Source of the DNA: Vulcanimicrobiales bacterium
GTDB taxonomy: Bacteria; Vulcanimicrobiota; Vulcanimicrobiia; Vulcanimicrobiales; Vulcanimicrobiaceae
NCBI GenBank assembly: GCA_038231455.1
Contig: JBBRLI010000013.1
Span: 27,147 to 91,146, forward strand
DNA length: 64,000 bases
Reading direction: 5' to 3'
Shown piece by piece: positions 1 to 48,536 of this stretch (positions are counted from its first letter, which is position 1; each line of letters begins with the position of its first letter). A model generated the notes under the pieces. That model did not search any database. It saw nothing but the letters and a program-made list of their open reading frames with translations, and was not told the origin of the DNA. The position numbers and the translations under genes were made by a program.

Positions 1-1
1 G

Positions 2-454
2 AACAACCAGATCGTCGCGCGGACGAATCGGGCGGGATACGCGGTCGTCCCGGGGCTTGGGTCGTACCTTCCCAGTATCGTCGGCATTTCCGATGTGAAT
101 CTGCCTTTTGATGAGTTGGTCGGCGGCGATCAACGTATCGCGCCCGGTTTCAAGGGCGCGGGCATCGTTCGCTACGCCTCGCATCGCGAACACGGAATCG
201 TTGGATCGGCGCAGGTCCGTCGAACGGGCCGCGGCGAGCCGGCCGCGTACGGACAGATCGAATTGCGTTTGGGTAAGGTCATCCAGACCTCACCGACCGA
301 TGCCGACGGACGATTTTATTTCGAACATCTGGCAACCGGTGTGTACGAAGCAACGATCTCGGACACATACGGCGTGCGCTGCACCGCACAGGTGCGCATC
401 CCAGAGTTTTCGGGCGCGCAATTCTCACTGGGGACAGTCACATGCGTCGAGTAG
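2..454 (+). CDS. Chaperone-usher (Csu/archaic type) outer-membrane usher, C-terminal part; 5' end outside window
   Basis: Frame is open from the window edge (NNQIVARTNRAGYAVVPGLGSYLPSIVGISDVNLP...), with a second 'SPTDADGRFYFEHL' repeat and a terminal Cys pair typical of usher C-terminal domains; overlaps the pilin gene. Confidence 0.7.
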   Translation, partial: NNQIVARTNRAGYAVVPGLGSYLPSIVGISDVNLPFDELVGGDQRIAPGFKGAGIVRYASHREHGIVGSAQVRRTGRGEPAAYGQIELRLGKVIQTSPTDADGRFYFEHLATGVYEATISDTYGVRCTAQVRIPEFSGAQFSLGTVTCVE

Positions 455-909
455 CGCTCGCTCTCGCACTCATCTGCGTCTTGTGCCGGCCCGCGATCGC
501 CGGGCCGCTTAGCTGTTCTGAGACCGCTACAAGCGGCCTGATCTTTACGAACGCATATAACGTGTACGCTCTCACCACGTACAGTGTCACGGCGACGGTC
601 GGCGTGACTTGCAACAAAAATAACGTCCCTTATACGATATCGGCCAACGCCGGGATGCATAGTGTGGCGCTTCCGAATCGAGACTTGAAGTACGTCAGCG
701 GGGCGGACGTACTTCCCTACTTCCTCTACACCACTGCCGCGCACACGACGGTTTTTGGTGACGGAACCAACGGCACGGCAATCATCAACGCAAATAACCC
801 AAGTTCTGGTACGCAGTATACAACCAGCATCTACGGAACGCTGGCGGCGGGTGCCGACGTGACGGCCGGTAGTTATACGGATACGGTCACGCTGACCGTC
901 ACGTATTAA
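442..909 (+). CDS. Spore coat U (SCPU)/Csu-type fimbrial pilin subunit
   Basis: Signal peptide, two Cys, 'LPYFLYTTAAHTTVFGDGT' and C-terminal 'AGSYTDTVTLTVTY' typical of Csu pilins. Confidence 0.85.
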   Translation: MRRVALALALICVLCRPAIAGPLSCSETATSGLIFTNAYNVYALTTYSVTATVGVTCNKNNVPYTISANAGMHSVALPNRDLKYVSGADVLPYFLYTTAAHTTVFGDGTNGTAIINANNPSSGTQYTTSIYGTLAAGADVTAGSYTDTVTLTVTY

Positions 910-915
910 TATCGA

Positions 916-1182
916 CTAACGCTTTTTCGTGACTTCGACGGTTGCGTGGAGTTCGCTCTCGTGACCGTCGGCATCGATCACGACGTTCCAATGACCGTCG
1001 CCGGGTGCTGCAAGAACGACCGGACTCGTGCGCGCATGACCGCCGATGAACTGATATTGGGCTTTTGATTTGAACAGCTTGAAGTTTGCGTCATCCATCA
1101 AACGCACGTTGGCTTGATGATCGAGCGTCACCCGGATTGCATCGCCTTCGCGCAATTTAAAGTGATAGTGAAGAATCTGCAT
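916..1182 (-). CDS. DUF1883-family small protein
   Basis: 'VTLDHQANVRLMDDANF...GGHARTSPV...GHWNVVID' resembles DUF1883. Confidence 0.7.
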   Translation of the reverse strand: MQILHYHFKLREGDAIRVTLDHQANVRLMDDANFKLFKSKAQYQFIGGHARTSPVVLAAPGDGHWNVVIDADGHESELHATVEVTKKR

Positions 1183-1287
1183 TCGAACCTCAAGCCGATA
1201 TTAAATTTAGATTACCCCGAAACACGCTCGCTCACGCATCGGTATCTTGGGCGACAACCTCTCACCGGTTCAAGAAAGTAGCGCAAG

Positions 1288-1602
1288 ATGATCAATCTCA
1301 CGCGTGCGACGCTCGTCGCCTGCGGTGTCTTTACCATTGCCGTCTCGTCGGCGCTCCCGGCGGTCGCCTCGGATTCGGGAATCGTTTCGTTTCGCTGCGC
1401 CTCCGCTGATGCCGGGTGCAACGTCGAAATACGATTGGGCACCCTGGATAGCCCCGATCAGGCGGCCCCGTACGGCTCAAAACACATCGACAAAGACTCC
1501 ACCTGGGACGTCGATTCCGGCGGCCTCTACGTGTTTTACAAAGGCAAAGACGGCTCGTGGCAGCGCGTTGCCGGAAATCGCGATTCGAAAATCGACCTCT
1601 GA
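1288..1602 (+). CDS. Hypothetical secreted protein
   Basis: N-terminal signal-peptide-like hydrophobic stretch ending AVA; 104 aa. Confidence 0.55.
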   Translation: MINLTRATLVACGVFTIAVSSALPAVASDSGIVSFRCASADAGCNVEIRLGTLDSPDQAAPYGSKHIDKDSTWDVDSGGLYVFYKGKDGSWQRVAGNRDSKIDL

Positions 1603-1628
1603 TTTGTCGTGAAATGTGCGGGTCGCTC

Positions 1629-1658
1629 TTGACAGCGGCCTGCACATCCCGGTAGGCT
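1629..1658 (+). promoter_or_regulatory. Sigma70-type promoter for the aro leader (TTGACA-N18-TAGGCT)
   Basis: TTGACA 1629-1634 and TAGGCT 1653-1658, 7 nt before the leader ATG. Confidence 0.6.
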
Positions 1659-1665
1659 CAGCGTA

Positions 1666-1728
1666 ATGAACGCGAAGTGGTTTAGCTACTGGTATTTTAC
1701 GTCGCTCCAACGGATCGGCGCCGGTTAG
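1666..1728 (+). CDS. Aromatic amino acid leader peptide MNAKWFSYWYFTSLQRIGAG (20 aa)
   Basis: Six aromatic codons within seven consecutive positions (W F S Y W Y F), upstream of a terminator and DAHP synthase. Confidence 0.85.
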   Translation: MNAKWFSYWYFTSLQRIGAG

Positions 1729-1763
1729 CGTTTTCTCACTTCTTCGATAGCGATTTTGAGAAC

Positions 1764-1795
1764 AAAGCTGCCCGCCGATGCGGGCGGCTTTTTTT
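1764..1795 (+). terminator. Intrinsic attenuator terminator upstream of aroF
   Basis: aaagctgcccgc-cgat-gcgggcggc followed by T7. Confidence 0.85.
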
Positions 1796-1820
1796 ATTCC
1801 CCACAGAGGAGCCTCGACCG

Positions 1821-2660
1821 ATGATCGCCCCGTGCACGCCCTGGACCCCATCGCTCTTGCCGGCAAGCGCCGAGCAGTGGCCGCTCGTCGCGCGGCGCGG
1901 TAACGAATCGACGCTCGTGCACGTCGGTGATGCCGTCTTTGGGGCGGAGGATTTCGTCGTGATCGGCGGGCCGTGTTCGGTCGAATCGCCTGCGCAGATC
2001 GACGCTGCCGCGGCGGCCGTCGCGCGCTCCGGCGGCAAGCTGCTCCGTGGCGGCGCGTTCAAGCCGCGCACCAATCCGTACGCGTTCCAGGGGCTGGGTT
2101 GGGATGGGGTCGATCTGCTCGCGGCCGCCGGACGCCGTTACGGGCTACCGGTGGTGAGTGAAGTGATGTCGATCGACCAAGTCGATCGCATGGCAGAATC
2201 CATCGACGTGCTGCAAGTTGGGGCGCGCAATATGCAAAACTTCGATCTCTTACGTGCCGTCGGCCGTTCGCATCGACCGGTCTTACTCAAACGCGGCATG
2301 AGTGCGACGCTCGACGAACTGCTCTGCGCTGCAGAATACATCGTCAACGAAGGCAACAAGAATGTGATCTTGTGCGAGCGTGGGATTCGCACGTTCGAAA
2401 CCTCGACGCGCAATACGCTCGATCTCGGCGCAATCGTCGTGCTCCGCGAACGCACGCACTTGCCGATCATCGTCGATCCCTCGCACGCGGTAGGTGTACG
2501 GCGTTGGATTCCACCGCTCTGTCGCGCGGCGCAAGCCGTCGGCGCGCATGGCTTGATGATTGAAGTGCATCCCGAACCGTGCGAGGCGCTCTGCGACCGC
2601 GACCAAGCCCTCGACCTTGAGGACTTCGCCGCGGTCATGGCATCGCTTAAGCGGGGCTGA
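1821..2660 (+). CDS. aroF: 3-deoxy-7-phosphoheptulonate (DAHP) synthase, type I-beta, catalytic domain only
   Basis: [41 protein letters not shown] and EVHP motifs. Confidence 0.92.
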
Positions 2661-3963
2661 GCTCGCGGCGAAAGGATTCCGTCGCTGCGAAGGCTTGCGC
2701 GAGATCGGCGATGAGATCGTCCGCATCTTCGATGCCAACCGAGAGTCGTACGAGATCGGGCGTGACGCCGGCCTCGATTTGTTCGACGACCGTAAGCTGT
2801 TGGTGCGTCGTCGTCGATGGGTGGATCGCAAGCGACTTTGCATCGCCGACGTTCGCGAGCAGAGAGAACAGCTTGAGTGCATCGATGAACGCCTTGGCCG
2901 CGGCAGCGCCGCCTTTCACGCCGAACGTAAGGATCGCGCCCTGCCCTTTGGGCAAGTACTTCTTGGCAAGCGGATGAGCGCGATCACCTTCGAGTCCCGG
3001 ATACTGCACCCACACGACCTCGCCGCGGCCTTGTAAGAACGTTGCGACGCGCAGCGCGTTTGTCGAGTGGCGCTCGACGCGTAAGCCGAGCGTCTCGAGG
3101 CCCTGAAGAAGAAGCCAGCCGTTGAACGGTGAGAGCGAGGATCCCAAGTCTCGCAGCAACTGGACCCGTGCTTTGACGATGAATGCCATGTTCCCGAACG
3201 AGGCTACGTAGCGAACGCCATGATACGACGGATCGGGGTCGGTGAGTTCGGGGAATTTTCCCGATGCGGCCCAATCGAAGTTGCCGCCGTCGACGATGAC
3301 GCCGCCGATTGTCGTTCCGTGTCCGCCGATAAATTTCGTCGCCGAGTGGGTGACGACGTTTGCGCCGTGTTTGATCGGATTGCTCAGATACGGCGTCGCA
3401 AGCGTGTTATCGACGATGAGCGGGATCTTCGCTTCGTGGGCGATAGCGGCCACCGCTTCGATGTCGAGTACGTCGACTTTCGGATTGCCGATGGTCTCTG
3501 CAAAAATCGCCTTCGTATTGGGTTTGATCGCGTTTTTGAAATTCGCGAGCTTACCCGGGTCGACGAGCGTCACCTCGATGCCGAATTTTGGCAGCGTGTG
3601 GACGAAGGCGGAGTGCGTCCCGCCGTACAGCGATGCGGAGCTTACGATGTGATCGCCTGCGCGGGCGATGTTGAGAATCGCGAAGATGTTCGCCGCTTGT
3701 CCTGAGGCGACGGCAAGTGCACCAACGCCGCCTTCGAGGACGGCGAGCCGCTGTTCGAGCACGTCGTTTGTGGGGTTCATGATACGCGTGTAGATGTTGC
3801 CGAACTCTTGGAGTCCGAAGAGACGCTCCGCGTGCGCGGTATCATCGAAGGTGTAGGACGTCGTTTGATAGATTGGAACGGCCCGGGCCTTCGTCGTTGG
3901 GTCGCCGCTATGACCCGCGTGAATTGCTGCGGTATCGAACTTGTACGCGTGCTCGTCGGACAT
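2647..3963 (-). CDS. metY: O-acetylhomoserine aminocarboxypropyltransferase (sulfhydrylase)
   Basis: [32 protein letters not shown] (PLP lysine), [14 protein letters not shown]. Confidence 0.93.
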
Positions 3964-4001
3964 CGGTGTTCCTCGCTTGTGAGTGGCGAAAGATGGAGTG
4001 G

Positions 4002-4041
4002 AAAGAAGAAGCCCCGCAGCCGGTGTCCGGTGCGGGGCTTC
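4002..4041 (-). terminator. Intrinsic attenuator terminator upstream of metY
   Basis: Minus strand gaagccccgca...tgcggggcttc stem followed by ttcttt. Confidence 0.75.
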
Positions 4042-4066
4042 GTTTATTCGGTTGCTGCGGTTGCTG

Positions 4067-4144
4067 CTAGCCGACGAAAACCCGACACCGGTCCATAATG
4101 GTGGTGCTCGTGCAGGTCATCGTCGTCATCCAGGCGGCGTTCAT
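4067..4144 (-). CDS. Met/Thr/Cys-rich leader peptide [25 protein letters not shown] (25 aa)
   Basis: 4 Met, 6 Thr, 2 Cys, 1 Ile; its 3' part (4074-4091) is complementary to the terminator arm (4027-4043). Confidence 0.8.
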
Positions 4145-4150
4145 GTGAGC

Positions 4151-5242
4151 CTAGGAGTAACACGGGACGAGTCGCCCTGTCAAGGCATCGGTGAACGCGC
4201 GTGAGGAAAGCGAGGGTTCACCGGGGCCGACTAAATCCGCCGTACGGGCGCCGGCCGCGTAGGTGGCTCGAACGGCTTCCTCGATCGCGCGCGCGTTTGC
4301 CTCATCGCCGAGGCTGAAGCGCAAGAGCAGGGCGGCGGAGAGGATCGCTGCGGTGGGATTGGCGATCCCGAGGCCCGCGATATCGGGTGCCGTGCCGGCG
4401 ATCGGCTCGTAGAGGCCGAATTTGCCACCGGACGCGGCACGCGTGCCGACGCTCGCGCTCGGCGCCGTTCCGATCGATCCGCCAAGTGCTGCGGCCTCAT
4501 CGGAGAGAATGTCGCCGAACATATTTTCCATCACGAGCACATCGAAGCGGCCGGGGTCGCGCACCAACTGCATCGCGGCGTTATCGACGAGCAGATGATC
4601 GAAGGCCACATCCGGATAGTCGGCCGCAACGCGAATGGCCGTCTTACGCCACAGTTGCGAGTTGACCAAGACGTTCACTTTGTCGACGGAGGTCAACCGT
4701 TTGGAACGCGTTCGTGCAAGCTCGAATGCGAAGCGCACAACACGCTCGATATCGGGCGCACGGTAACTCATCGTCTCGCACGCACACTCGACTCCATCGA
4801 TCGTCTCGATCGTTTTCTCACCGAAGTACAGTCCGCCGGTCAGTTCGCGGACGATGATGAGGTCGAGCTGACTTGCCAGATCCGCGCGCAGCGGCGAGCG
4901 CGATTCGAGCCCGGCGAACATCGTCGCCGGGCGCACGTTTGCGTAGAGGTCGAAGTGTTTGCGTAAAGTGAGCAGCGCGTACTCGGGTCGCTGCTGCGGC
5001 GATGCGCCGTCGAACTGTGTGCCACCGACAGCACCGAAGAGAATTGCATCTGCCCGCTCGCAGCCCGCAAGCGTCGCATCCGGCAGTGAGGTTCCGTGCG
5101 CGGCAACCGCCGCGGCACCGACAGCAAATTCTTCAAAGGCGAGATCCGGCCGCACCAGCGCGAGCACGCGCTGCGCGCAGGCCGTGACTTCGGGACCGAT
5201 CCCATCTCCTGGGAGAACGGCGATCATCGCGCGTGCTGCCAC
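4151..5242 (-). CDS. leuB: 3-isopropylmalate dehydrogenase
   Basis: [43 protein letters not shown]; alternative ATG at 5227 overlaps the leuD stop. Confidence 0.93.
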
Positions 5243-5748
5243 GCGCGCACGGTATCGATTTTACTGGCAAGATACGGTAAGAATCCGCCGCCCAAGATGA
5301 ACTGCTTGCGCAGTTCGTCGAGTTCAAATGCGACCGGTGCTTCGTCATCCGCTTGTACGGTTTGCTTCGCGACGTCGATCGTGATCGAGCGCGCGCGGGC
5401 GAAACCCTCGATCATCGCATCCGGTACGACCACCGGCACGATTGCGTTCGTATACGCATTCTCAAGAAAAATGCGCGCAAAGCTCGACGCGATGACCGCG
5501 CGGAAGCCGCGAGCCGTGAGCGCCCACGCCGCATGCTCGCGCGAACTGCCGCAGCCGAAGTTTTCGCCGGCCACAACGATGTTCGCCCCGGGCGACTCCG
5601 CCAGGAGCTCGGCGCCGCCGGCCATGCCGGTGAAGAGATGTTCGCCCAAGCCCTCGGTATCGATGCCGGTGAGGTATCGTGCGGGGATGATTTGGTCGGT
5701 ATCGACGTTTGCCCGACGGAGCGGAAGCGGTTTGCCGGTCACGATCAT
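5224..5748 (-). CDS. leuD: 3-isopropylmalate dehydratase small subunit
   Basis: NVDTDQIIPARYL, NFGCGSSREHA; ATG at 5748 overlaps the leuC stop. Confidence 0.92.
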   Translation of the reverse strand: MIVTGKPLPLRRANVDTDQIIPARYLTGIDTEGLGEHLFTGMAGGAELLAESPGANIVVAGENFGCGSSREHAAWALTARGFRAVIASSFARIFLENAYTNAIVPVVVPDAMIEGFARARSITIDVAKQTVQADDEAPVAFELDELRKQFILGGGFLPYLASKIDTVRAWQHAR

Positions 5749-7082
5749 ACGAGTGCCTCTTCGCGAATGGGCGCGCCGATGTCGGCTGGCGATGCGATAC
5801 GACCGAGTAGCGCGCTTGCTGCTACGATCGCGGGTGATGCGAGATGGACGCGTCCGCCATCGCCCATCCGGCCTTGGAAATTGCGGTTCGATGAAGAGAT
5901 GCAACGCATCCCCGGAGCGAGTACGCCCATCGACATCCCCAAACACGGACCGCACGACGAGTGCGTCCAAAGCGCCCCCGCATCTTGAAAAATTTCGTGC
6001 AGACCTTCGCGTTCCGCAGCACGTTTGACGGCCTGCGATCCCGGCGTGATGATCGTCGGAATAACGACGTTCTTTCCACGCAGAACGCGCGCCGCTTCGC
6101 GCAAATCGCCGATGCGCGAATTGGTACAAGAGCCGATGAACGCTTGGTCGAGCACGATCTCGCTCATCTTATCGCCAACCCGCAAGTCCATATAGTCGAG
6201 TGAAGCTGCGGCGGCACCGACCGGGACGACGCCATCGATCGGTGCGTTCTCGCCGGGATTCGTCCCCCAGGTTACCAGCGGACGAACCGCGTTTCCATCG
6301 ATCGTGACGCTCGCCGCGTAGCGTGCGTCGCGATCGGCGCGTAAGAAAAGCCAGTCACTAGGAGCTTCTTGCGTTTTCTCAAGATAGGCCGCGGTCACGC
6401 CGTCGGCCGCAATAATTCCAGTCGTCGCCCCCGCCTCGATTGCCATATTGCAAAGCGTCATACGCTGCTCCATGTCGAGCGAGTCGATCGCCGAGCCCGT
6501 GTACTCCAAAACGTACCCCGTGCCGCCACGAAAACCGATCTCGGCGATCACGGCGAGCGCCAAGTCTTTCGCGCTAGCGGACGGGTGCAGTTCTCCCTTT
6601 ACCTCGACGCGCATAACTTTGGGTCGCTGTAAGATCAGACATCCCGCAAGCATCGCGCCCGCTTGCGCGGTGGTCCCGATGCCCAGCGCAAAGGCACCAA
6701 AAGCGCCGAGCGTACACGTGTGGCTATCTCCACAGCAAACCGTCGATCCGGGCGTGACGTAGCCGCGCTCGGGGACGATAACATGGCAGATTCCGCCCTC
6801 GCCGATATCGTAGAGCCGGATGCCCTGACGTTTTGCCCACGTGCGCAAGACCTGCGCTTGAATCGCCGTGGCCGTGTCTTTCGCGGGCGACACGTGATCG
6901 TTAACCGCAACGATACGGTCGCGGTCGTAGAGGCAGTCGCCATACTCTTTCTCGATCGCGATCGCGCCCTGGGGTGTGGTAATCTCGTGCGCGACGACGC
7001 GGTCCATGAAGACCAGCGCGTTGCCGCCGGGAAGTTCTTCGACGACATGCGCGTCCCAAATTTTATCGAAGAGCGAACGCAT
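5745..7082 (-). CDS. leuC: 3-isopropylmalate dehydratase large subunit
   Basis: LFDKIWDAHVV, HEITTPQ, CGDSHTCT, GSCTNSRI, CGPCLGM, SNRNFQGRMG; GGAGG upstream of ATG 7082. Confidence 0.93.
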   Translation of the reverse strand: MRSLFDKIWDAHVVEELPGGNALVFMDRVVAHEITTPQGAIAIEKEYGDCLYDRDRIVAVNDHVSPAKDTATAIQAQVLRTWAKRQGIRLYDIGEGGICHVIVPERGYVTPGSTVCCGDSHTCTLGAFGAFALGIGTTAQAGAMLAGCLILQRPKVMRVEVKGELHPSASAKDLALAVIAEIGFRGGTGYVLEYTGSAIDSLDMEQRMTLCNMAIEAGATTGIIAADGVTAAYLEKTQEAPSDWLFLRADRDARYAASVTIDGNAVRPLVTWGTNPGENAPIDGVVPVGAAAASLDYMDLRVGDKMSEIVLDQAFIGSCTNSRIGDLREAARVLRGKNVVIPTIITPGSQAVKRAAEREGLHEIFQDAGALWTHSSCGPCLGMSMGVLAPGMRCISSSNRNFQGRMGDGGRVHLASPAIVAASALLGRIASPADIGAPIREEALV

Positions 7083-8238
7083 CGGAGGCCTCCGTGGTAA
7101 TCGCATGCGCGATCGCAAGCAAATCGTCGTCGGTGGCATTGCGCCGCGTCTCGACGAATTTACGGAATGCTTCTTCGAAGCGCGCCGACCCTTCGGCGCC
7201 GAAGATGATACCCAAATCCGAGATGCGCGTGAGCAAGGCGTTGCGGCCCGAGTTGCGTGAGAGCGGCAAACGCGTCGCCGCACCGACGCTACTTGGGTCG
7301 ACGATTTCGTAGGTTCGGCGATCTTTGATCATCCCGTCCTGATGGATGCCGGATTCGTGCGCGAAGGCATTCGCTCCGACGATCGCCTTGTTTTTCTGCA
7401 CTGGCATGTCGGTTGCACGTGAGACCTCAGCCGAGAGTTCGGCGATGCGGTCGCTGCGAAATCCGGTCGTACATTTGAAACGGTCGTGCCGGATCGTCAT
7501 TGCGACGGCAACTTCTTCGAGCGCGCAGTTGCCCGCCCGCTCGCCGATCCCGTTAATCGTGCACTCGACTTGGCGCGCACCCGCGCCGACCGCCGAAAGG
7601 GCGTTTGCCGTTGCAAGACCCAGATCGTCGTGCGTGTGGACGCTCACGATCACGTTCTCGATCCCCGGGACTTCGCGGACGATGCGTTCCACCAAGTCCG
7701 CCATCTCTGCGGGTGTCGTGTAACCGACGGTATCCGGGACGTTGATCGTGGTGGCACCGGCGCGAATCGCTGTTGCGTACACCGCAAACAATAACGCCGA
7801 ATCGCTGCGGGTAGCGTCTTCGGCAGAGAACTCGATGTTATCGCATTTGGACTTCGCATACGCAACGTTGGTCGCGACTCGCGCAATGACGTCTTCGCGC
7901 GTCGTGCGCAGTTTGCGCTCGATGTGAATATCGCTCGTCGCAATGAAGACGTGCAGGCGCGGTGATTGCGCTTCTTTGATCGACTCCCACGCGATGTCGA
8001 TATCGCCCGTGGTACAGCGCGCGAGGGCCGCGATCTGACTGCCGCGCACGTTTCGGGCAATCTCGGCCACGCTCTTCGCGACGATCGGCGAGGCTGCGGG
8101 AAAGCCGGCCTCGATGATGTCGACGCCGGCGTCGGCGAGCATATGCGCGATGCGCAGCCGGTCATCCGGGGACATCGTCGCGCCGGGCGACTGTTCGCCA
8201 TCACGCAGGGTCGTATCAAAGAGATAAACGCGGTCCAT
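7063..8238 (-). CDS. leuA: 2-isopropylmalate synthase, short form (391 aa)
   Basis: FDTTLRDGEQSPG, HTHDDLGLA, NGIGERAGN, AFAHESGIHQDG; ends before the usual C-terminal regulatory domain. Confidence 0.9.
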   Translation of the reverse strand: MDRVYLFDTTLRDGEQSPGATMSPDDRLRIAHMLADAGVDIIEAGFPAASPIVAKSVAEIARNVRGSQIAALARCTTGDIDIAWESIKEAQSPRLHVFIATSDIHIERKLRTTREDVIARVATNVAYAKSKCDNIEFSAEDATRSDSALLFAVYATAIRAGATTINVPDTVGYTTPAEMADLVERIVREVPGIENVIVSVHTHDDLGLATANALSAVGAGARQVECTINGIGERAGNCALEEVAVAMTIRHDRFKCTTGFRSDRIAELSAEVSRATDMPVQKNKAIVGANAFAHESGIHQDGMIKDRRTYEIVDPSSVGAATRLPLSRNSGRNALLTRISDLGIIFGAEGSARFEEAFRKFVETRRNATDDDLLAIAHAITTEASDAFALR

Positions 8239-8250
8239 GCTAGTTCTCCA

Positions 8251-8291
8251 AGAAAAAAAGAAGCGAGGTCTCCGACTCGGGAGCCTCGCTT
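8251..8291 (-). terminator. Intrinsic attenuator terminator upstream of leuA
   Basis: Minus strand aagcgagg...cctcgctt stem followed by ctttttttct. Confidence 0.8.
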
Positions 8292-8318
8292 GGTGTAATG
8301 CGGGCGTAACGAATCGGG

Positions 8319-8372
8319 CTATCGAGGCCGGTAGCGAAGTCGGAGTAGAAGCGGAAGTCGGCGCAGGATCAT
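8319..8372 (-). CDS. leuL: Leu-rich leader peptide MILRRLPLLLRLRYRPR (17 aa)
   Basis: Six Leu codons (CTG, CTT, CTT, CTA, CTC, CTT); ATG overlaps the TGA of the upstream ACT gene (ATGA). Confidence 0.82.
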   Translation of the reverse strand: MILRRLPLLLRLRYRPR

Positions 8373-8587
8373 GTTGGGGCGAAGGCCGCGTCTTGCGCCG
8401 CGATCTGCGAGATTTTTGCATCGAGGCGGCGCAGTGCATCGGCGTCGCCTTCGAGCTTGAACGTTGCAAGCGTCAAATCGTCGTTGGTGCGCGCGTCGAT
8501 ACGCGCAAGCGAACAGCCAAAGCGCGGAGCGAGGTTGATGATCCGTGCGAGCAGACGCTGGTCGCGGAGGACGACAGAGATGGTCAC
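8369..8587 (-). CDS. ilvN: Acetolactate synthase small subunit-like single ACT-domain protein (72 aa)
   Basis: Position directly after ilvB with ATGA overlap; 'LLARIINLAPRFGCSL' ACT-like pattern; divergent. Confidence 0.6.
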   Translation of the reverse strand: MTISVVLRDQRLLARIINLAPRFGCSLARIDARTNDDLTLATFKLEGDADALRRLDAKISQIAAQDAAFAPT

Positions 8588-10263
8588 GGTTTCGACTCGA
8601 TCCCCTCATCGATCGCGCCGCCGGCCGGGATCATCGGCCACACGTTTTCGCTCGGATAGCAGATGCAGTGCAAAAGCATCGGGCCATCGTGGGCGAGCAA
8701 CGCTTTGAGCGCTGCATCGACGTCCTCTTCGCGATCGACGCTATCGGCATGGATGTCGTAGGCCTTGGCGATTGCGACGAAGTCCGGATTGTCGGAGAGA
8801 TTGGTTGCCGAGTAGCGCTCGTTGTAGAAGAGTTCTTGCCACTGGCGCACCATGCCGAGATTGCGGTTGTCGATCAAGAGGATCTTGACCCGAACCTTGT
8901 ACCGGCGCAGCGTCGCAAGTTCCGTGAGCGACATTTGAAAACCGCCGTCGCCGACAACCGTCACGACCTCTTTGTCGGGCTGGCCAAACGCAGCGCCGAT
9001 TGCGGCGGGCAAGCCGAACCCCATCGCGCCGAGTCCGGCCGAGGTTGCAAAGTTCCGCGGATGATCGGGGCGCACGCGCTGCGCGGCCCACATCTGGTGC
9101 TGGCCGACGTCGGTCGTCACCACCGTGCTGCCCGGCGCAATTGCGAAAAGCCGATCCATGATCGTCGTCGCCGAGAGTCCATCAACTTTGTCGCTCGGCG
9201 GCGGCGCCCACATGTTGGCGACTTCATCGCCCCAGTCATCGAAGCGCGGAATGCGCGATCGTTCGAGTTCGTCGCAGAGCGCACGCAGCGTCGTTGCAAG
9301 GTCTCCCGCAAGGGACACGCTCGCCGGGATGATTTTCGAGAATTCGCTCGGGTCGATGTCGGCGTGAATGATCGCCGCTTCTTTCGCGAAGCGATCGGTG
9401 CGGCCGGTGACGCGATCGTCGAAGCGCATGCCGAGCGCCAGAATCACATCGGCGCGGTGCACCGAAAGATTGGCGGCTTTCGAGCCGTGCATGCCGAGCA
9501 TGCCGAGGTAATGCCGGTCGCCGGGTTCGCCTGCGCCGAGGCCGTTAATCGTCGCGGTGTGCGGCAAGCCGAGCATCGAGACGAGGCGGCGATACTGTTC
9601 GAGCGCGTCTTCGCCGCGCCGGACGCCGCCGCCGATGATCGCAAGCGGACGTTTCGCTCGCCGCAGCAAGTCGGCTGCGCGAGCGATGGCGTTTCGATCG
9701 AGGGTTGGAAGCGCGGGCATCGCAATCGTGAACGTCGGCGCGGACGCCTCGTCGATTGCGGCTTTGAGCACGTCACTTGGAATATCGACGAGCACCGGCC
9801 CGGGGCGTCCGCCGGATGCAATTGCGAATGCGCGGCGCATTTCTCGCGCGATCAACTGCGGATCGCGGATGAGAATGTTGGCTTTGGTGACCGGCTGGGT
9901 GATGGCACAGACGTCGGCTTCTTGGAAGCCATCGGTGCCCATCAGATTGCTGCGAACTTGCCCCGTGATCGCGACGAGCGGAATCGAGTCCATCGATGCA
10001 TCCAGGAGGCCGGTCACGAGGTTCGTTGCGCCCGGACCCGACGTCGCACAGCACACGCCGACGCGCCCCGTGGTGCGCGCGAAGCCGCTTGCGGCAAAGA
10101 CCGCAGCCTGCTCGTGACGCACGAGGATGTGTCGGATGCTGTGCCCGTAGAGCGCATCGTAGAGCGGCATGATCGCTCCGCCCGGATAGCCGAAGATCGT
10201 CTGCACGCCTTCGGCTTCAAGCGCTTCGAGCACCGCGTGCGCCCCGCCGCGAATCGCGATCAT
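8584..10263 (-). CDS. ilvB: Acetolactate synthase large subunit
   Basis: IFGYPGGAIMP, RHEQ, ATSGPGATN, GMRFDDRVTG, DVGQHQMW, GDGGFQM, GMVRQWQ. Confidence 0.95.
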   Translation of the reverse strand: MIAIRGGAHAVLEALEAEGVQTIFGYPGGAIMPLYDALYGHSIRHILVRHEQAAVFAASGFARTTGRVGVCCATSGPGATNLVTGLLDASMDSIPLVAITGQVRSNLMGTDGFQEADVCAITQPVTKANILIRDPQLIAREMRRAFAIASGGRPGPVLVDIPSDVLKAAIDEASAPTFTIAMPALPTLDRNAIARAADLLRRAKRPLAIIGGGVRRGEDALEQYRRLVSMLGLPHTATINGLGAGEPGDRHYLGMLGMHGSKAANLSVHRADVILALGMRFDDRVTGRTDRFAKEAAIIHADIDPSEFSKIIPASVSLAGDLATTLRALCDELERSRIPRFDDWGDEVANMWAPPPSDKVDGLSATTIMDRLFAIAPGSTVVTTDVGQHQMWAAQRVRPDHPRNFATSAGLGAMGFGLPAAIGAAFGQPDKEVVTVVGDGGFQMSLTELATLRRYKVRVKILLIDNRNLGMVRQWQELFYNERYSATNLSDNPDFVAIAKAYDIHADSVDREEDVDAALKALLAHDGPMLLHCICYPSENVWPMIPAGGAIDEGIESKP

Positions 10264-11319
10264 CTACATCACCCGGAACGGGATGGTGTCGCTCGAACCG
10301 CCGCCGCCGGCCGAGGCCATAGACTTTTTGTCGGCATCGAACCACGGCATCAGTTTGCGTAACTGCGCGCCGATCGCTTCAATCGGATGCGCCGCGGCCT
10401 TTTTCCGGTATTCGTTAAACGATGGTTTGCCCGCCGCGTGTTCGGCGACCCAGGTGCGCGCGAACGTGCCATCTTGAATGTCACTCAGAATTTTCTTCAT
10501 CGCGGCGCGCGTTTCGTCCGTGACGATTTTCGGACCGGCGGTATAGTCGCCGAACTTCGCCGTGTTGCTGATCGAGCCGCGCATACCCTCGATGCCTTTT
10601 TCATACATCAAGTCGATGATGAGTTTCATCTCGTGCAGGCACTCGAAGTACGCCATTTCCGGCGCATAGCCGGCCTCGGTGAGCGTTTCGAATCCGGCGG
10701 TGATGAGCGCGGAGACGCCGCCGCAGAGAACCGCCTGTTCGCCAAAGAGATCCGTTTCGGTCTCTTCTTTAAACGTTGTCTCGAGGATACCGGCGCGACC
10801 GCCGCCGATCGCCGAGGCATACGCCATCGCCGTTTTGCGCGCGGTGCCGCTCGGGTCTTGATGGATCGCGATCAAACACGGCACGCCGCGCCCGGCTTCA
10901 TATTCGGAGCGTACGAGACGCCCCGGACCTTTGGGTGCGATCATGAAGACATCGTTTGATTTCGGCGGCACGATGGTGCCAAAGTGAATCCCGAAACCGT
11001 GCGCGAACACCAGCGCCGCGCCGGGTTTGAGATGATCGAGGATGCTGCGCAGGTACGTTGCGGGCTGTTCCTCATCGGGGATCAGCATCATCACGATGTC
11101 GGCGCTTGCGGCGGCTTCCTCGACGGTCTTGACGGCGAGGTAGTCGCGGCGCGCTTCATCGCGTGATGCCGAACCTTCGCGCAGTCCGACAACCACGCTA
11201 TAACCGGAGTCGGTCAGGTTGAGCGCATGCGCTCGGCCTTGGCTGCCGTATCCGATGATCGCAATGGTCTTGCCGTCGAGTGCTCGCCGATCGATATCGG
11301 CGTCGTAATAGGCCTTCAT
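10264..11319 (-). CDS. ilvC: Ketol-acid reductoisomerase
   Basis: [53 protein letters not shown] before ATG 11319. Confidence 0.95.
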
Positions 11320-11348
11320 GCCATCCCCTACTGCTGTCATTGAGTGAT

Positions 11349-11384
11349 AAAAAAAGCCCCCGCCGATAACCGGCGGGGGCTTTT
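11349..11384 (-). terminator. Intrinsic attenuator terminator upstream of ilvC
   Basis: Minus strand aaaagcccccgccg-gttat-cggcgggggc followed by T7. Confidence 0.88.
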
Positions 11385-11407
11385 ACATTCGTGCTAGCTT
11401 CTAGCGC

Positions 11408-11488
11408 CTATGTGAAAGCAAACCGCCGGTCCGTAATAAGGACCGCAAGAAGGAGGCTAACGACAAGGAGGAGCGAGCGGCTGAACAT
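11408..11488 (-). CDS. Branched-chain amino acid leader peptide MFSRSLLLVVSLLLAVLITDRRFAFT (26 aa)
   Basis: 7 Leu, 3 Val, 1 Ile clustered; its accggcgg is complementary to ccgccggt in the terminator 5' arm. Confidence 0.85.
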   Translation of the reverse strand: MFSRSLLLVVSLLLAVLITDRRFAFT

Positions 11489-11496
11489 CTTTGCGG

Positions 11497-11526
11497 TTTG
11501 TAGCACGCAACGCTGCAGAGTGTCAA
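11497..11526 (-). promoter_or_regulatory. Candidate promoter for the ilv leader (TTGACA-N18-TACAAA, extended TG)
   Basis: tgtcaa on + at 11521-11526; the -10-like element lies 8 nt before the leader ATG. Confidence 0.5.
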
Positions 11527-11541
11527 CGGTTTCTGCGCGTC

Positions 11542-12462
11542 GTGTCGGAAAAAAAATCGGCGGGACGCGGCATTGCGGCGCTCCTGGCGCTGAGTTTGCT
11601 CTGGGGTTCGAATTGGGCCGTGATGAAAATTGCGCTGCGTGACGTCGGTCCGATCGCATTTGCCGCGATGCGTAACGGACTTGGTGCCGTGGCCTTATTC
11701 GCCGTTCTACTGGCGTTGCATCGAGCCACCCGTCCAGTCGGTTGGCGCGGATTGATCGTGCTCGGTCTGCTGCAGACGACCGGACAAGTGGGACTTGCGA
11801 CGTGGGCGCTTACGGCGGGCGGTGCGGGCAAAGTTGCGGTGCTTGTCTACACGATGCCGTTTTGGGTGGTACTGCTGGCGTGGCCGCTACTCGGCGAGCG
11901 CATCGTGCGGCTGCAGTGGGTTGCACTTACGTTCGGCCTCGTGGGCATCGTCGCAATTGTCGATCCGCGTACGCTCGGCGGCGCGTCGCTCGGATCCGAT
12001 CTGCTCGCGATCGGCAGCGGCGTGTGCTGGGCGCTCGGCTCGATCGTTGCCAAACGCCTGCGACTCCAAGGCGACGTCCTCAACATCACCGCCTGGCAAA
12101 TGCTCTTCGGGTCGATTCCGCTCGTCGTGCTCGCCGTGTTGATCCCGGAGCGTGCGATCTTCTGGTCGGCAAACTTCACTTGGGCGCTGGCGTACAACGT
12201 CGTCCCGGCGACCGCCCTTGCCTGGGTTCTCTGGATGTTCGCGCTGCGCAATCTCAAAGCGAGCGTCGCCGCGATGGGTTCGCTCTTGAACCCCATCGTC
12301 GGTGTCGGGGTCGCCTGGCTCGTCCTCGGCGACCGCCCCGGGGGGCTTGAATTTGCCGGGATCGCGACGATCGCTATCGCCCTGCTCGTCGTTTCGTTCG
12401 GTCCGGGCCGCGGTGCCACGGATGCGCGCGCGAAACCCGACGTGCAATCTGCTCGTGTATGA
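11542..12462 (+). CDS. EamA/DMT family transporter
   Basis: Duplicated EamA pattern (LLWGSNW; YTMPFWVVLLAWPLLGERI; LLNPIVGVGVAWLVLGD); GTG 11542 preferred over TTG 11491. Confidence 0.85.
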   Translation: MSEKKSAGRGIAALLALSLLWGSNWAVMKIALRDVGPIAFAAMRNGLGAVALFAVLLALHRATRPVGWRGLIVLGLLQTTGQVGLATWALTAGGAGKVAVLVYTMPFWVVLLAWPLLGERIVRLQWVALTFGLVGIVAIVDPRTLGGASLGSDLLAIGSGVCWALGSIVAKRLRLQGDVLNITAWQMLFGSIPLVVLAVLIPERAIFWSANFTWALAYNVVPATALAWVLWMFALRNLKASVAAMGSLLNPIVGVGVAWLVLGDRPGGLEFAGIATIAIALLVVSFGPGRGATDARAKPDVQSARV

Positions 12463-12779
12463 TAGACGGACCTCGTTTTAAGGAGAATCTTCTGTTTGCG
12501 CTCGCACTCGTAACGCTGGCCCTTGCCACATCGACTCAAACGGCCGCGACGACGTCCGGCCAGGTGATCATCTCGACGAAAATGAGTTCCGTCTCCGGCA
12601 TCGTTCGTGTCGTCGGTGAGAAGATCTATCTTGTCGGGACGAAGCGCGTGTTACTCACCGTCATCGATCAAGCGATGCGCGACTCGCTGGTCGCATCGAA
12701 CGGGAAAAAACGGACGGTGCTCGGGACGCCCGATCGAGTCAGCGGCACCGGCGCGTTTCTCGTAACGGGATTGCCTTAG
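12459..12779 (+). CDS. Hypothetical exported protein
   Basis: ATGA overlap with EamA gene; hydrophobic N-terminus. Confidence 0.5.
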   Translation: MIDGPRFKENLLFALALVTLALATSTQTAATTSGQVIISTKMSSVSGIVRVVGEKIYLVGTKRVLLTVIDQAMRDSLVASNGKKRTVLGTPDRVSGTGAFLVTGLP

Positions 12780-13852
12780 CGCTCGCTCCGCGCGAGAAGG
12801 TCGGCAAGATAGCGGCCCCAGACCGCGGGCAACGTATGCGTGCCATGGCCGCGTGTTTCGTTTGAAATCGGCAACACGACCGCTCTTCCGTTTTTTACCT
12901 TCGCGATGTCACGCTCGAGGATGTGAAGTTCCGGCGGATTGATTTGATCGTCGGCGCTGTTGACCGCCTGAAGCGGAGCTACGATCGTGCCGAGCGCCGT
13001 TTCGGGATCGTAGTCTCGCGAGGATTCGAACTGGTAGATCGTATCGTTTGCATCGGACTGCCCGAAGCGCGGTTTGATCGTCGACCCGTAATACGTATCC
13101 GCGGCATCGCGCGTCGGGTACTGGCTTTGATTGAAGAGCGGCGCGGAACCGAACACGTAGAGCAGGTCGACGGCGGTGCGCATGCCGTAGGGCTGCGATG
13201 TATATTCCCCGCCGTGATATCCCGGATCGTTTTTGATGTCATCGACGATCATGTCGCGCCACACGCGATTGCGTCCGCCGATTTGCACCGGCAAACTCGC
13301 AAGCGGCATCAGCGCGTCCATCATCATCGGATACATCTCGCCCCACAACCACGTTTGCATCCCGCCCATCGACGTTCCCATCACCAGGCGCAGGTGATCG
13401 ACGTGCAGTCCCTCGACGAGCAGCGTATGCACGGCATCGACCATATCGCGATAGCCATACTTGGGAAAGCGCGCGTGCATCCCGTCGCTGGGTTTGCTCG
13501 AACCGCCGTGACCGATGCCATCGGGGATGATGATGAAATACTTGCTTGCATCGAGCAGTTGATCCGAATTGAAAAGCACCCCCGCGAACCGCTCGCTCAA
13601 AAACTGATGCGTGTCGCCGCCGGTGCCGTGCAAGATGATGACCGCGTTACGCACATGCCCGCCGGCATCGCGCCGCGGGGTGCCGAGCGTTGCGTAGTGC
13701 ATGCGTAAGTTTGCAAGCGTCTCACCGTCGTGAAAGTGGAACGTATCGATCGTAAACGTTCCTTCTGTGACCGTCGGTATCGCGGCGCTCGCGGCGTGCG
13801 GCAGTGCGATAAGAGCGGCGACCAGAAGCGGCACCATGCGTTTGAACATCAT
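12776..13852 (-). CDS. Alpha/beta hydrolase, homoserine O-acetyltransferase (MetX)-like family, with signal peptide
   Basis: HYATLG, ILHGTGG, PDGIGHGGSSKPSDG, GTSMGG nucleophile elbow, GHGTH; N-terminal signal ending ASA. Confidence 0.8.
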   Translation of the reverse strand: MMFKRMVPLLVAALIALPHAASAAIPTVTEGTFTIDTFHFHDGETLANLRMHYATLGTPRRDAGGHVRNAVIILHGTGGDTHQFLSERFAGVLFNSDQLLDASKYFIIIPDGIGHGGSSKPSDGMHARFPKYGYRDMVDAVHTLLVEGLHVDHLRLVMGTSMGGMQTWLWGEMYPMMMDALMPLASLPVQIGGRNRVWRDMIVDDIKNDPGYHGGEYTSQPYGMRTAVDLLYVFGSAPLFNQSQYPTRDAADTYYGSTIKPRFGQSDANDTIYQFESSRDYDPETALGTIVAPLQAVNSADDQINPPELHILERDIAKVKNGRAVVLPISNETRGHGTHTLPAVWGRYLADLLARSER

Positions 13853-13862
13853 GCCGCCTTCG

Positions 13863-14366
13863 CTACGCGGTTTTTGGGCTCCGGTTTGGTTCGAAGCGGA
13901 GCGCGACGCCATTCATGCAGTAGCGCAGCCCCGTCGGCGGCGGACCGTCGTCGAAGACGTGTCCGAGGTGACCAAGACAGCGCGCGCAATGGACTTCCGT
14001 GCGCGGCACGCCCAAAGCAAGGTCGGATTTCGTTTTGATGCGGCCCGGCAGCGGCGCGTAAAAACTCGGCCAACCGGTCCCCGAATCGTACTTCGTTTTC
14101 GAGGCGTAGACGGCAAGATCGCAGCCCGCGCAGGCATAGGTGCCGGTTTTGGTCAGGTGATCGAGCGGACTGGAAAACGGCGGCTCGGTGCCCTCGTGGC
14201 GGAGGACGTCGTAAGCCTCGGACGAGAGCTTTTTGCGCCACTGTTCGTCGGTCAGGGTGTAGCCGGGCGCATCGGCGGCCCGACTTGCTCCCCGGCGAAG
14301 CGAAAAGAAGAGGGCGCCCGCTCCGGCGATGAGGGCAAGCGAACCACGCCGTGTCAACGTTTTCAT
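13863..14366 (-). CDS. msrB: Peptide-methionine (R)-S-oxide reductase with Tat signal
   Basis: TRRGSL twin-arginine; GTEPPF, CAGC, SGTGWPSF, HLGHVFDDGP, RYCMNG. Confidence 0.92.
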   Translation of the reverse strand: MKTLTRRGSLALIAGAGALFFSLRRGASRAADAPGYTLTDEQWRKKLSSEAYDVLRHEGTEPPFSSPLDHLTKTGTYACAGCDLAVYASKTKYDSGTGWPSFYAPLPGRIKTKSDLALGVPRTEVHCARCLGHLGHVFDDGPPPTGLRYCMNGVALRFEPNRSPKTA

Positions 14367-47003: not shown

Positions 47004-47107
47004 CTGGGACCTAAGACCCAGTTTCAGATCGAGATAGAGGGTCCGGTTACTTTCTGGTCGCAAACCACTCGCAAGGGACGCGGTGACCACGCGTACCCAT
47101 AACTGCC

Positions 47108-47240
47108 GTGATCACTGAGTCCGAGGATCGCATCTCGGAACGGGGGACTCTCAGGTGGGGTGAATGTGCCGGTCGGCACTAGGGCGATTCTTTCCGTCCG
47201 AACCCGTCAACTAACCCCGTAAGTGTTGGAAAGAAGGAGC
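47108..47240 (+). ncRNA. c-di-AMP (ydaO/yuaA) riboswitch
   Basis: Conserved blocks ctgagtcc, ggaacggggga, ggggtgaat, tagggc, ccgaacccgtcaactaaccccgtaag; pseudoknot pair ttctttcc/ggaaagaa. Confidence 0.88.
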
Positions 47241-48463: not shown

Positions 48464-48536
48464 TGGGGTATCGCCAAGTTGGTAAGGCACCAGGTTTTGA
48501 TCCTGGCATGCGTTGGTTCGAGTCCAGCTACCCCAG
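48464..48536 (+). tRNA. tRNA-Gln (TTG)
   Basis: tggggta/tacccca acceptor stem, ccagg-ttTTGat-cctgg anticodon arm, GGTTCGAGTCC T-arm; CCA not encoded. Confidence 0.95.

Follow-up and report, generated by a model that had tools for sequence, protein, structure and literature searches.

Background

Among the described systems of transcription attenuation, the enterobacterial leaders carry Shine-Dalgarno sites and comparatively long 5' untranslated regions, and we know of no enterobacterial leader peptide that is encoded inside an operon. In Bacillus subtilis, three PyrR attenuators are located in the pyr operon and a TRAP-controlled trp attenuator lies within the aro supraoperon. The present analysis concerns a stretch of 64,000 nucleotides (hereafter the window) from contig JBBRLI010000013.1 of the Vulcanimicrobiales bacterium assembly GCA_038231455.1, in which four short open reading frames (sORFs) of 20, 25, 17 and 26 codons precede the amino acid biosynthetic genes aroF, metY, leuA and ilvC, respectively. 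The host assembly (G000) is metagenome-derived, 3.7 Mb in size and 93.7% complete, and belongs to an uncultured soil-type bacterium. Judged by IlvC, its closest named relative is a metagenome-assembled genome (MAG) of the Vulcanimicrobiaceae (72% identity), a family which NCBI places in the phylum Vulcanimicrobiota, presumably equivalent to the Eremiobacterota/WPS-2.

Ribosome-read attenuators of comparable pathways have been described in Corynebacterium glutamicum, for which two reports list an ilvBNC leader, a leuA leader, trpL and the aroR leader ahead of aroF (PMC4046766, PMC11802643), the ilvB leader reportedly being made without a ribosome-binding site (PMC4046766). That the arrangement of attenuators is wholly undescribed, as the initial annotation of the window implied, is not supported, given that ilvB, leuA, trp and aroF attenuators are known in this actinobacterium. 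Leader peptides of leaderless mRNAs are also reported, from Deinococcus deserti, with 14 predicted leaderless leader peptides (PMC4007540), and from the mycobacteria, with leaderless poly-Cys sORFs (10.1101/834739); in the branched-chain amino acid (BCAA) attenuator of Mycobacterium tuberculosis ilvB1 the upstream open reading frame reads LVVI (PMC13236596). A literature search, in which subscription journals and supplements were thinly covered, listed no paper on a leader peptide inside an operon that is coupled to the preceding gene by a stop/start overlap, and none on a methionine-type leader of metY.

Results

Four candidate attenuators

The sequence features of the window are best accounted for by four ribosome-mediated leader-peptide attenuators, comprising an aromatic leader of aroF, nested isoleucine/leucine/valine (ILV) and leucine gates in a single ilv-leu operon and a separately promoted metY; the probability of this reading is put at about 0.72. 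The hallmarks of a leader attenuator, a sORF enriched in cognate codons and an intrinsic terminator, are present in all four elements (Table 1). A GC-rich hairpin with a T-rich tail occurs 25-35 nt past each of the sORFs, and the four terminators (-19.5 to -26.7 kcal/mol) are localised 12-60 nt ahead of the gene start on the gene's own strand. The initial annotation had listed four sORFs followed by a hairpin and U-rich tail ahead of aroF, ilvC, leuA and metY, and all of these are found in place and with a composition that matches the pathway concerned.

The composition of two of the sORFs was compared with a background of 19,814 ATG-started sORFs of 8-45 codons in the host genome. A density of at least six tryptophan, phenylalanine or tyrosine residues (W/F/Y) per ten residues is reached by two of the 19,814, one of which is the aroF leader, and the metY leader alone has at least nine methionine, threonine or cysteine residues (M/T/C) per ten. 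An initial genome-wide scan for sORFs associated with terminators was swamped by spurious Arg-, Ala- and Ser-rich sORFs and was replaced by promoter-anchored and residue-run scans. A simple consensus scan, with narrow rules for stem, loop and tail, listed the aroF hairpin as the only one of the four terminators and no leader promoter.

Conservation was assessed in 40 relatives searched per gene, with up to 30 loci examined per gene, and in 301 genomes of the order in the case of leuA. The sORFs hold their frame, length and enrichment in cognate codons across the relatives despite nucleotide divergence, and the leaders are short (~130-150 nt) and without a conserved aptamer-like core. An antiterminator that is formed by the end of the sORF (region 2) and the 5' arm of the terminator (region 3), and which excludes the terminator, is supported by covariation in the ilv leaders, by a switch upon ribosome masking in aroF and by a compensatory change in metY. 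The corresponding pairing is present in the leuA leader, where the ribosome-dependent switch is not clean. In snapshot folds, where the RNA is folded before the terminator 3' arm is made and the ribosome is placed at successive codons, the terminator 5' arm of aroF, metY and ilvC is paired upstream while the ribosome occupies the early and regulatory codons. As the ribosome nears the stop codon this pairing falls from 9 to 6-7 nt in aroF, from 12 to 6-10 nt in metY and from 10 to 4-6 nt in ilvC.

The ilvC leader

Seventeen ilvB loci were examined, from which that of the window (where ilvB is internal) and one truncated locus were left out. An ILV-rich sORF and a strong terminator are found upstream of ilvB in all 15 usable relatives, leader-ilvB-small subunit-ilvC being the commonest order. 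The leader-ilvC order of the window recurs at one locus (L001), the leader of which is clearly homologous; its genome (G041) gave no match to leuA. The 15 relatives, L001 and the window together make up a set of 17 leaders, and the ilvC loci that were read include that of G009. In each of the 17, region 2 starts at codon 17-19 and reaches codon 22-29, and its duplex with the terminator (5' arm and loop) has an energy of -17 to -30 kcal/mol. In 14 of these leaders region 1 and the ILV codons overlap, and the energy of the 1:2 pairing is -14 to -25 kcal/mol; in the remaining three (L105, L112 and L001) the best partner of region 2 lies nearer to the 5' end than the ILV codons.

On a MAFFT alignment of the 17 sequences (A1), 92.1% of the cells of the nine-pair antiterminator helix are paired, as opposed to 24-57% when the helix is slid. 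Both sides have changed in 17 cells, compared to a shuffle mean of 4.5, and none of 500 shuffles reaches 17; the pair 59-126, for example, occurs as U-A (6), A-U (5), G-C (4) and G-U (2). Relatedness of the sequences inflates such counts, but the slid controls retain this relatedness and nevertheless drop sharply. In one family (f2; genomes G025-G029, loci L114-L119 and L127-L130), the leuA and ilvB leaders are divergent, with back-to-back promoters ~50 nt apart. Of 41 close relatives, 20 gave a match to ilvC itself, ~18 of these being strong ilvC-level matches, and branched-chain prototrophy seems to be patchy in the lineage, as judged from MAGs of varying completeness.

The aromatic leader of aroF

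Codons 5-11 of the aroF leader include all three aromatic amino acids. Region 2 is able to pair with the 5' arm of the terminator (2:3, -17.9 kcal/mol) as well as with region 1 (1:2, -19.5 kcal/mol), and a ribosome mask at codons 4-9 flips the minimum free energy fold from terminator to antiterminator, all other positions giving the terminator. An aromatic leader with a terminator is found at seven of the 30 loci for 3-deoxy-D-arabino-heptulosonate 7-phosphate (DAHP) synthase (G000, G001, G003, G005, G012, G015 and G021), and by eye the pairing between region 2 and the terminator loop is kept among them through G-C, G-U and A-U changes. In G021 (L175) the leader of a DAHP synthase paralogue carries WWW in place of the mixed aromatic residues, which suggests isoenzyme-specific attenuators. 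At the other DAHP synthase loci, coding for fused (~610-630 aa) or N-terminally extended proteins, no leader plus terminator was found; one of these longer-form loci (G031) has a W/Y-rich sORF for which the scan found no terminator. The second DAHP synthase of the host genome (C3:76029-77099) likewise has an N-terminal extension, is encoded behind a chorismate-mutase-like open reading frame (ORF) and lacks a leader.

The metY leader and the sister genome

The promoter-like site of the metY leader lies within the 3' end of leuB, with the leader ATG 9 nt past the -10; the automatic scan picked a variant with a 16-nt spacer instead. Region 2 pairs with the 5' arm of the terminator (2:3, -20.4 kcal/mol, z -2.4), and this terminator is the sole one after leuB. 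In a genome of the same genus (G001, contig C8, 17582-18664; L192-L195), ~7.5 kb are missing from the EamA transporter gene through most of leuB, a gap that covers this transporter gene, the ilvC leader next to it, ilvC, ilvB, the small-subunit gene, the leu leader, leuA, leuC, leuD and part of leuB, and which suggests that branched-chain synthesis was lost recently. Two leuB fragments remain, and the metY promoter, leader and terminator (~95% identity) are retained together with metY. The 24 nt around the metY -35 differ at a single position between G000 and G001, where the flanking leuB remnant is ~80% identical, and a synonymous C to U change in region 2 of the G001 leader is accompanied by a G to A change in the terminator 5' arm, which compensates for it.

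Elsewhere, a Met/Cys-rich leader and a terminator are found ahead of metY in G014, and G034 contains a weak candidate. At most of the other metY loci whose upstream sequence was read, metY follows another gene and has no leader, and G009, G020 and G022 enter the tally of metY loci only as rows without a leader. No Rfam family was detected in 20 metY loci of relatives.

The internal leuA leader

The ATG of the leuA leader (8372-8370) overlaps the TGA of the acetolactate synthase small-subunit gene (8371-8369). No promoter-like site is found in the 45 nt upstream of this leader, which is internal to the operon and is separated from leuA by the terminator alone, and leuA-leuB would for these reasons be transcribed by readthrough only. 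The 3' end of the leader is able to pair with the 5' arm of the terminator. Two candidate antiterminator strands occur, just before and just after the stop codon, and inspection suggests that a ribosome positioned on this codon would mask them both. By eye, the core of Leu codons resembles those of the promoter-proximal leuA leaders of family f2.

In the order-level sample 37 of the 301 genomes have leuA, and 35 loci were examined. A promoter-proximal Leu- or ILV-rich leader with a terminator precedes leuA at 11 of these and a terminator without a Leu run at two, an ilvE-like gene lies directly upstream at 15 and ilvC at three, two loci are truncated, and at one (G265) leuA is coupled to the small-subunit gene without an intervening leader; the window, with its internal leader, makes up the last. 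At two loci of genus g36 (L214 and L215), leuA is preceded by a promoter and a strong terminator together with a short sORF that lacks a Leu run; region-2-like sequence is retained, and this element may be a degenerate or re-purposed leader.

Promoters and translation of the leaders

All 17 ilv leaders share a TTGAC(A/T/G) motif, a spacer of 16-18 nt, a -10-like hexamer and an ATG 7-13 nt further on. The hexamer begins with TA in 16 of the 17, the scan having picked TGTTAT for L105, and a Shine-Dalgarno-like site was found in none of the 17, the ilvC leader of the window included. In the window the ATG of the aroF and ilvC leaders is 7 and 8 nt past the -10, respectively. Judged from this promoter spacing, which sets the ATG close to the -10-like hexamer, translation of the three promoter-proximal leaders would probably begin on leaderless or near-leaderless mRNAs.

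Other RNA elements and further candidates

The remark of the initial annotation that no T-box or S-adenosylmethionine (SAM) riboswitch is visible holds beyond the window, as there is no match to the T-box (RF00230) in the 93.7%-complete host genome, by a search that as a control matches five known genomes, and none to SAM-I (RF00162); the other SAM classes were searched in the window and the metY loci only. In positions 1-14000 every Rfam match stays below its gathering score. For the leader families (Leu_leader RF00512, Thr_leader RF00506, Phe_leader RF01859, His_leader RF00514), which have gathering scores of 49-55, the best matches are, in descending order, 26.6 bits (Phe_leader, gathering score 55), 26.2, 23.3 and 20.7 bits (Thr_leader, gathering score 55), and these sub-threshold matches are driven by the terminators. 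Across the 64-kb window the gathering-level matches are a cyclic di-AMP riboswitch (47103-47240, +, 85.2 bits) and a tRNA (48464-48536, +), and nothing else.

A fifth candidate attenuator is encoded elsewhere in the host genome (contig C1, ~450818-450759, -; L198). An ssuACB-like operon coding for a sulfonate transporter (ssuA-, ssuC- and ATPase-like genes) is preceded there by a Cys-rich sORF of 19 codons and a strong terminator; the promoter, TTGACG-18-TAGGCT, is of the style seen in the window, and the ATG is 7 nt past it. Between rplQ and trpE (contig C22, trpE at 29796), ~150 nt upstream of the latter, an eight-codon sORF that includes two Trp codons is followed by a hairpin without a T-run, and this element may represent a Trp sensor of another type or a chance occurrence. 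No leader was seen upstream of hisG-hisD. Further scan candidates are a W/M sORF on C6 and a Lys-rich sORF on C11. A Thr-run sORF on C12 was rejected, its hairpin lying between convergent genes and the neighbouring ORFs being without a family match, as was a WWW sORF on C38, which apparently falls within coding sequence and has no gene close downstream.

Gene content and gene packing

Genes were named from NCBIfam profile matches. The minus strand encodes, in this order, ilvC, the acetolactate synthase large subunit, a 72-aa ORF, leuA, leuC, leuD, leuB and metY, and the almost gapless packing reported in the initial annotation is borne out by overlaps and adjacency. The genes ilvC and ilvB are adjacent, the ilvB stop codon and the GTG of the small-subunit gene overlap as GTGA, ATGA overlaps join the small-subunit gene to the leu leader, leuC to leuD and leuD to leuB, and the leuB stop codon is 6 nt ahead of the metY leader ATG. 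An alternative ATG of ilvC is present at 11340. The convergent 3' ends of aroF and metY share 14 nt (2647-2660), with no terminator in between.

Neither Pfam nor NCBIfam recognises the 72-aa ORF, termed ilvN in the initial annotation. Its homologues follow ilvB in 14 relatives across the order, G009 among them, and its predicted structure (pLDDT, the predicted local distance difference test score, of 85.5; 13-row alignment) is a beta-alpha-beta-beta-alpha ACT domain, the best match of which in the PDB is the regulatory subunit of Escherichia coli acetohydroxyacid synthase (AHAS) III (TM-score 0.73, root-mean-square deviation 1.6 Å, with a weak E-value of 5.9e-3). Because of this predicted fold, the AHAS III match and the conservation behind ilvB, the ilvN label is reasonable and functionally sensible.

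Two of the encoded enzymes are shortened. The aroF-type DAHP synthase matches positions 72-327 of the 338 of its profile (NF006421) and, with the first ~70 positions missing, consists of the bare core; LeuA comprises the HMGL-like and HCS_D2 domains only, the C-terminal LeuA_dimer regulatory domain being missing.

Table 1. Features of the four candidate attenuators and of the associated genes, with positions counted from the first nucleotide of the window
Feature	Position	Strand	Details
aroF leader promoter-like site	1629..1658	+	-35 TTGACA 1629-1634, 18-nt spacer, -10 TAGGCT 1653-1658
aroF leader sORF	1666..1728	+	20 codons; WFSYWYF at codons 5-11
aroF regions 1 and 2	1684..1730	+	region 1 1684-1710 (aromatic codons); region 2 1713-1730 (sORF 3' end)
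aroF intrinsic terminator	1764..1798	+	hairpin 1764-1791, 12-bp stem, -22.7 kcal/mol, followed by T-run
DAHP synthase (aroF type, class I-beta core)	1821..2660	+	279 aa; NF006421, 395.9 bits
metY, O-acetylhomoserine sulfhydrylase (homocysteine synthase)	2647..3963	-	
metY attenuator terminator	4000..4039	-	hairpin 4039-4010, -25.1 kcal/mol, T-rich tail to 4000
metY leader sORF	4067..4144	-	25 codons; 6 Thr, 3 internal Met, 2 Cys
metY regions 1 and 2	4120-4097; 4092-4079	-	
leuB	4151..5227	-	
metY leader promoter-like site	4154..4183	-	-35 TTGACA 4183-4178, 18-nt spacer, weak -10 TACTCC 4159-4154
leuD	5224..5748	-	ATGA overlaps with both neighbours
leuC	5745..7082	-	GGAGG ahead of ATG; 20-nt overlap with leuA
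leuA	7063..8238	-	391 aa; profile positions 3-394 of 516
Internal leu terminator	8250..8291	-	hairpin 8291-8261, -19.5 kcal/mol, T-run to 8250, 12 nt ahead of leuA ATG
leuA leader sORF	8319..8372	-	17 codons; 6 Leu at codons 3, 6, 8, 9, 10, 12
leuA leader 3' end (pairs with terminator 5' arm)	8328-8323	-	
Acetolactate synthase small subunit (IlvM/IlvN-like)	8369..8587	-	72 aa, ACT fold
Acetolactate synthase large subunit (ilvB/ilvG type)	8584..10263	-	TIGR00118, 642 bits
ilvC, ketol-acid reductoisomerase	10264..11319	-	AGGGGA Shine-Dalgarno-like site at start 11319
ilvC attenuator terminator	11349..11382	-	hairpin 11382-11354, -26.7 kcal/mol, followed by T-run
ilvC leader sORF	11408..11488	-	26 codons; 7 Leu, 3 Val, 1 Ile in codons 6-18
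ilvC region 1 core and region 2	11446-11440; 11432-11423	-	
ilvC leader promoter-like site	11497..11526	-	TTGACA 11526-11521, 18-nt spacer, TACAAA 11502-11497

Discussion

Proposed mechanism

From the features described above we infer the transcription starts, the translation of the sORFs, the stalling of the ribosome and the response to starvation on which the following model depends. RNA polymerase would transcribe a short ORF in which codons for the end product of the pathway are abundant. With charged tRNA plentiful, the ribosome would reach the stop codon and either cover region 2 or free it for pairing with region 1, whereupon the GC hairpin and U-run would form and transcription would stop ahead of the biosynthetic gene. 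A ribosome stalled at the regulatory codons would mask region 1, leaving region 2 to pair with the terminator (5' arm and loop) and the polymerase to continue. The W/F/Y leader would control the monocistronic DAHP synthase gene in this manner and the L/V/I leader would control ilvC, ilvB and the small-subunit gene, while the Leu leader within the same operon would gate readthrough into leuA, leuC, leuD and leuB. Because its AUG overlaps the stop codon of the small-subunit gene (ATGA), the Leu leader would probably be translated by termination-reinitiation. Control would be nested, such that a shortage of any branched-chain amino acid opens the ilv gate and only a shortage of leucine opens the leu gate. 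The M/T/C leader, with its own promoter in the leuB end, would control metY, and its terminator would also end the leu transcripts.

Within this model, the proposal that the Leu leader is a working attenuator fed by termination-reinitiation, in which the ribosome trailing the polymerase becomes the sensor and the operon acquires two nested gates, is advanced tentatively, its chances being judged as slightly short of even.

Evidence against the model and alternative explanations

Several observations weigh against attenuation by the ribosome at all four elements. The energies of the 2:3 duplexes lie 0.2 to -3.3 standard deviations from those of mononucleotide shuffles and are not exceptional, since GC-rich RNA pairs easily. 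In ribosome-masked equilibrium folds a clean switch was obtained for aroF only and not for metY, ilvC or leuA; the metY and ilvC terminators win in nearly every such fold because they are very stable, and the pattern in the leuA leader is patchy. Snapshot folds of the latter also show no drop in antiterminator pairing near the stop codon. The terminator helix is uninformative on alignment A1, where MAFFT sets its arms out of register, although each sequence alone folds into a strong hairpin. The -10 of the metY leader is weak, with its final T missing, the presence of six Thr codons in a leader of metY makes no obvious regulatory sense, and a Met-type leader is present at just three of 30 metY loci (G000, G001 and G014). 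Finally, the internal leuA arrangement occurs at one of 35 loci, in one genome from a metagenome assembly. The conservation upstream of orthologs on which the initial annotation had made its proposal depend is found for the ilv leaders (15/15, with covariation), for subsets of the aro (7/30) and leu (11/35) loci and at few metY loci (3/30), the internal leu leader being seen at one locus (1/35). Three of the four leader types recur in several relatives.

The same annotation envisaged a cascade of attenuators on a single long transcript, of which the ilvC leader at the head of the run and the internal leuA leader stand, and the inclusion of metY, with a promoter-like site of its own that survives in G001, most likely does not. 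One transcript from the ilvC leader promoter, passing three successive attenuators with no separate metY promoter, would be compatible with the lack of a terminator between leuB and the metY leader, with possible reinitiation across the 6 nt between the leuB stop codon and the leader ATG, and with the weakness of the putative metY -10. It is nonetheless unlikely in view of the perfect TTGACA with 18-nt spacing in the leuB end, which is better conserved than its surroundings, and of G001, where ilvC-leuB is gone and promoter, leader, terminator and metY are kept; tying methionine synthesis to branched-chain starvation would also make little metabolic sense. Because of this conserved TTGACA and the survival of promoter and leader in G001, metY is most likely a separate unit, the attenuator of which also ends the leu transcripts. 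A different simplification concerns the leuA element, which could be a relic leader acting as a constitutive partial terminator that fixes the ratio of ilv to leu transcripts and senses no leucine. The arrangement at a single one of 35 leuA loci, a 1:2 pairing that is not clear (-9.5 kcal/mol), the lack of a clean ribosome-dependent switch in the folds and the direct coupling of the small-subunit gene to leuA in G265 would all agree with a relic. Its sORF is, however, intact, with six Leu in 17 codons and an exact ATGA overlap like that of the other coupled genes, its 3' end is positioned as is the antiterminator strand of the promoter-proximal leuA leaders, and a ribosome at its stop codon would, by inspection, cover both antiterminator strands, all of which makes a relic rather improbable.

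The two remaining alternatives would apply to all of the elements. Were the switches read by an RNA-binding protein, uncharged tRNA or a metabolite, the sORFs would be incidental; their translation is predicted from sequence, and the actinobacterial ilvB and leuA leaders are reported to have given ambiguous mutational results (PMC1262725). Such a reader is very improbable given the negative T-box and SAM-I searches of the genome, the sub-threshold and terminator-driven Rfam matches in the region, and leaders that are short, lack an aptamer-like core and keep frame, length and cognate codons in relatives. It is hardly credible that the sORFs lie by chance beside ordinary terminators of the upstream genes: spurious sORFs do abound in high-GC genomes, and two look-alikes were rejected in this one, but the rarity of the compositions, the conservation in relatives, the covariation of the antiterminator and the position of each terminator directly upstream of a biosynthetic gene on the same strand all speak against coincidence.

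Significance

The four leader attenuators, if correctly interpreted, would extend classical ribosome-mediated attenuation to the Vulcanimicrobiota, a phylum known almost solely from metagenomes, and a leader appears to be the conserved means of controlling branched-chain synthesis at every usable ilvB locus examined. As gene callers miss such sORFs, the regulation of operons in these genomes goes unannotated. Attenuation may take the place of allosteric feedback in this lineage, since the attenuated DAHP synthase is without its N-terminal part and LeuA without its leucine-binding domain. Amino acid prototrophy is patchy in the order, in which leuA is rare and a sister species is freshly without the ilv-leu cluster. 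If the internal Leu gate operates as proposed, a leader peptide chained to the upstream gene by a stop/start overlap would provide hierarchical control within an operon, and a ribosome-read attenuator could do without a promoter and an initiation site of its own. Such a gate would be of relevance to attenuation theory, as regards the coupling of the first ribosome to the polymerase, and to the design of synthetic operons.

Comparison with known systems

The candidate attenuators of the window share with the enterobacterial trpL, leuL, ilvL/ivbL, thrL, pheL and hisL leaders (RF00512, RF00513, RF00506, RF01859, RF00514) the 1:2, 2:3 and 3:4 pairings, the placement of the regulatory codons in or before region 1 and the possibility of multivalent (ILV) control, and differ from them in scoring below the gathering threshold of each Rfam leader model. 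With the B. subtilis pyr and trp systems they have in common the presence of multiple conditional terminators in one unit and an attenuator that is reached from an upstream promoter. The B. subtilis attenuators are, however, read by RNA-binding proteins, whereas a stop/start-coupled ribosome and nested ILV and Leu control are proposed here. The promoter-proximal leaders of the window would resemble the leaderless leaders of Deinococcus deserti and the mycobacteria in starting at or within a few nucleotides of the predicted transcription start without a Shine-Dalgarno site; Cys-, BCAA- and Trp-type leaders are known in the described set, and a Cys-rich leader precedes the ssuACB-like operon of the host genome. 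Transcription starts are mapped in those taxa and deduced from promoter spacing in this one.

The closest likeness in terms of the genes controlled is with C. glutamicum, in which an ilvB operon, leuA and a DAHP synthase gene are likewise under the control of leaders with cognate codons (Phe-Tyr-Phe in aroR) and intrinsic terminators. The leaders described here belong to another phylum, the aroF leader contains all three aromatic amino acids, ilvC is first in its operon, and an internal, start/stop-coupled leuA leader and a metY leader are added to the set. Taken together, the comparison suggests that attenuators of a known general kind are present in a lineage where they are new, and that the internal, translationally coupled Leu gate, proposed from a single genome, would be new in itself.

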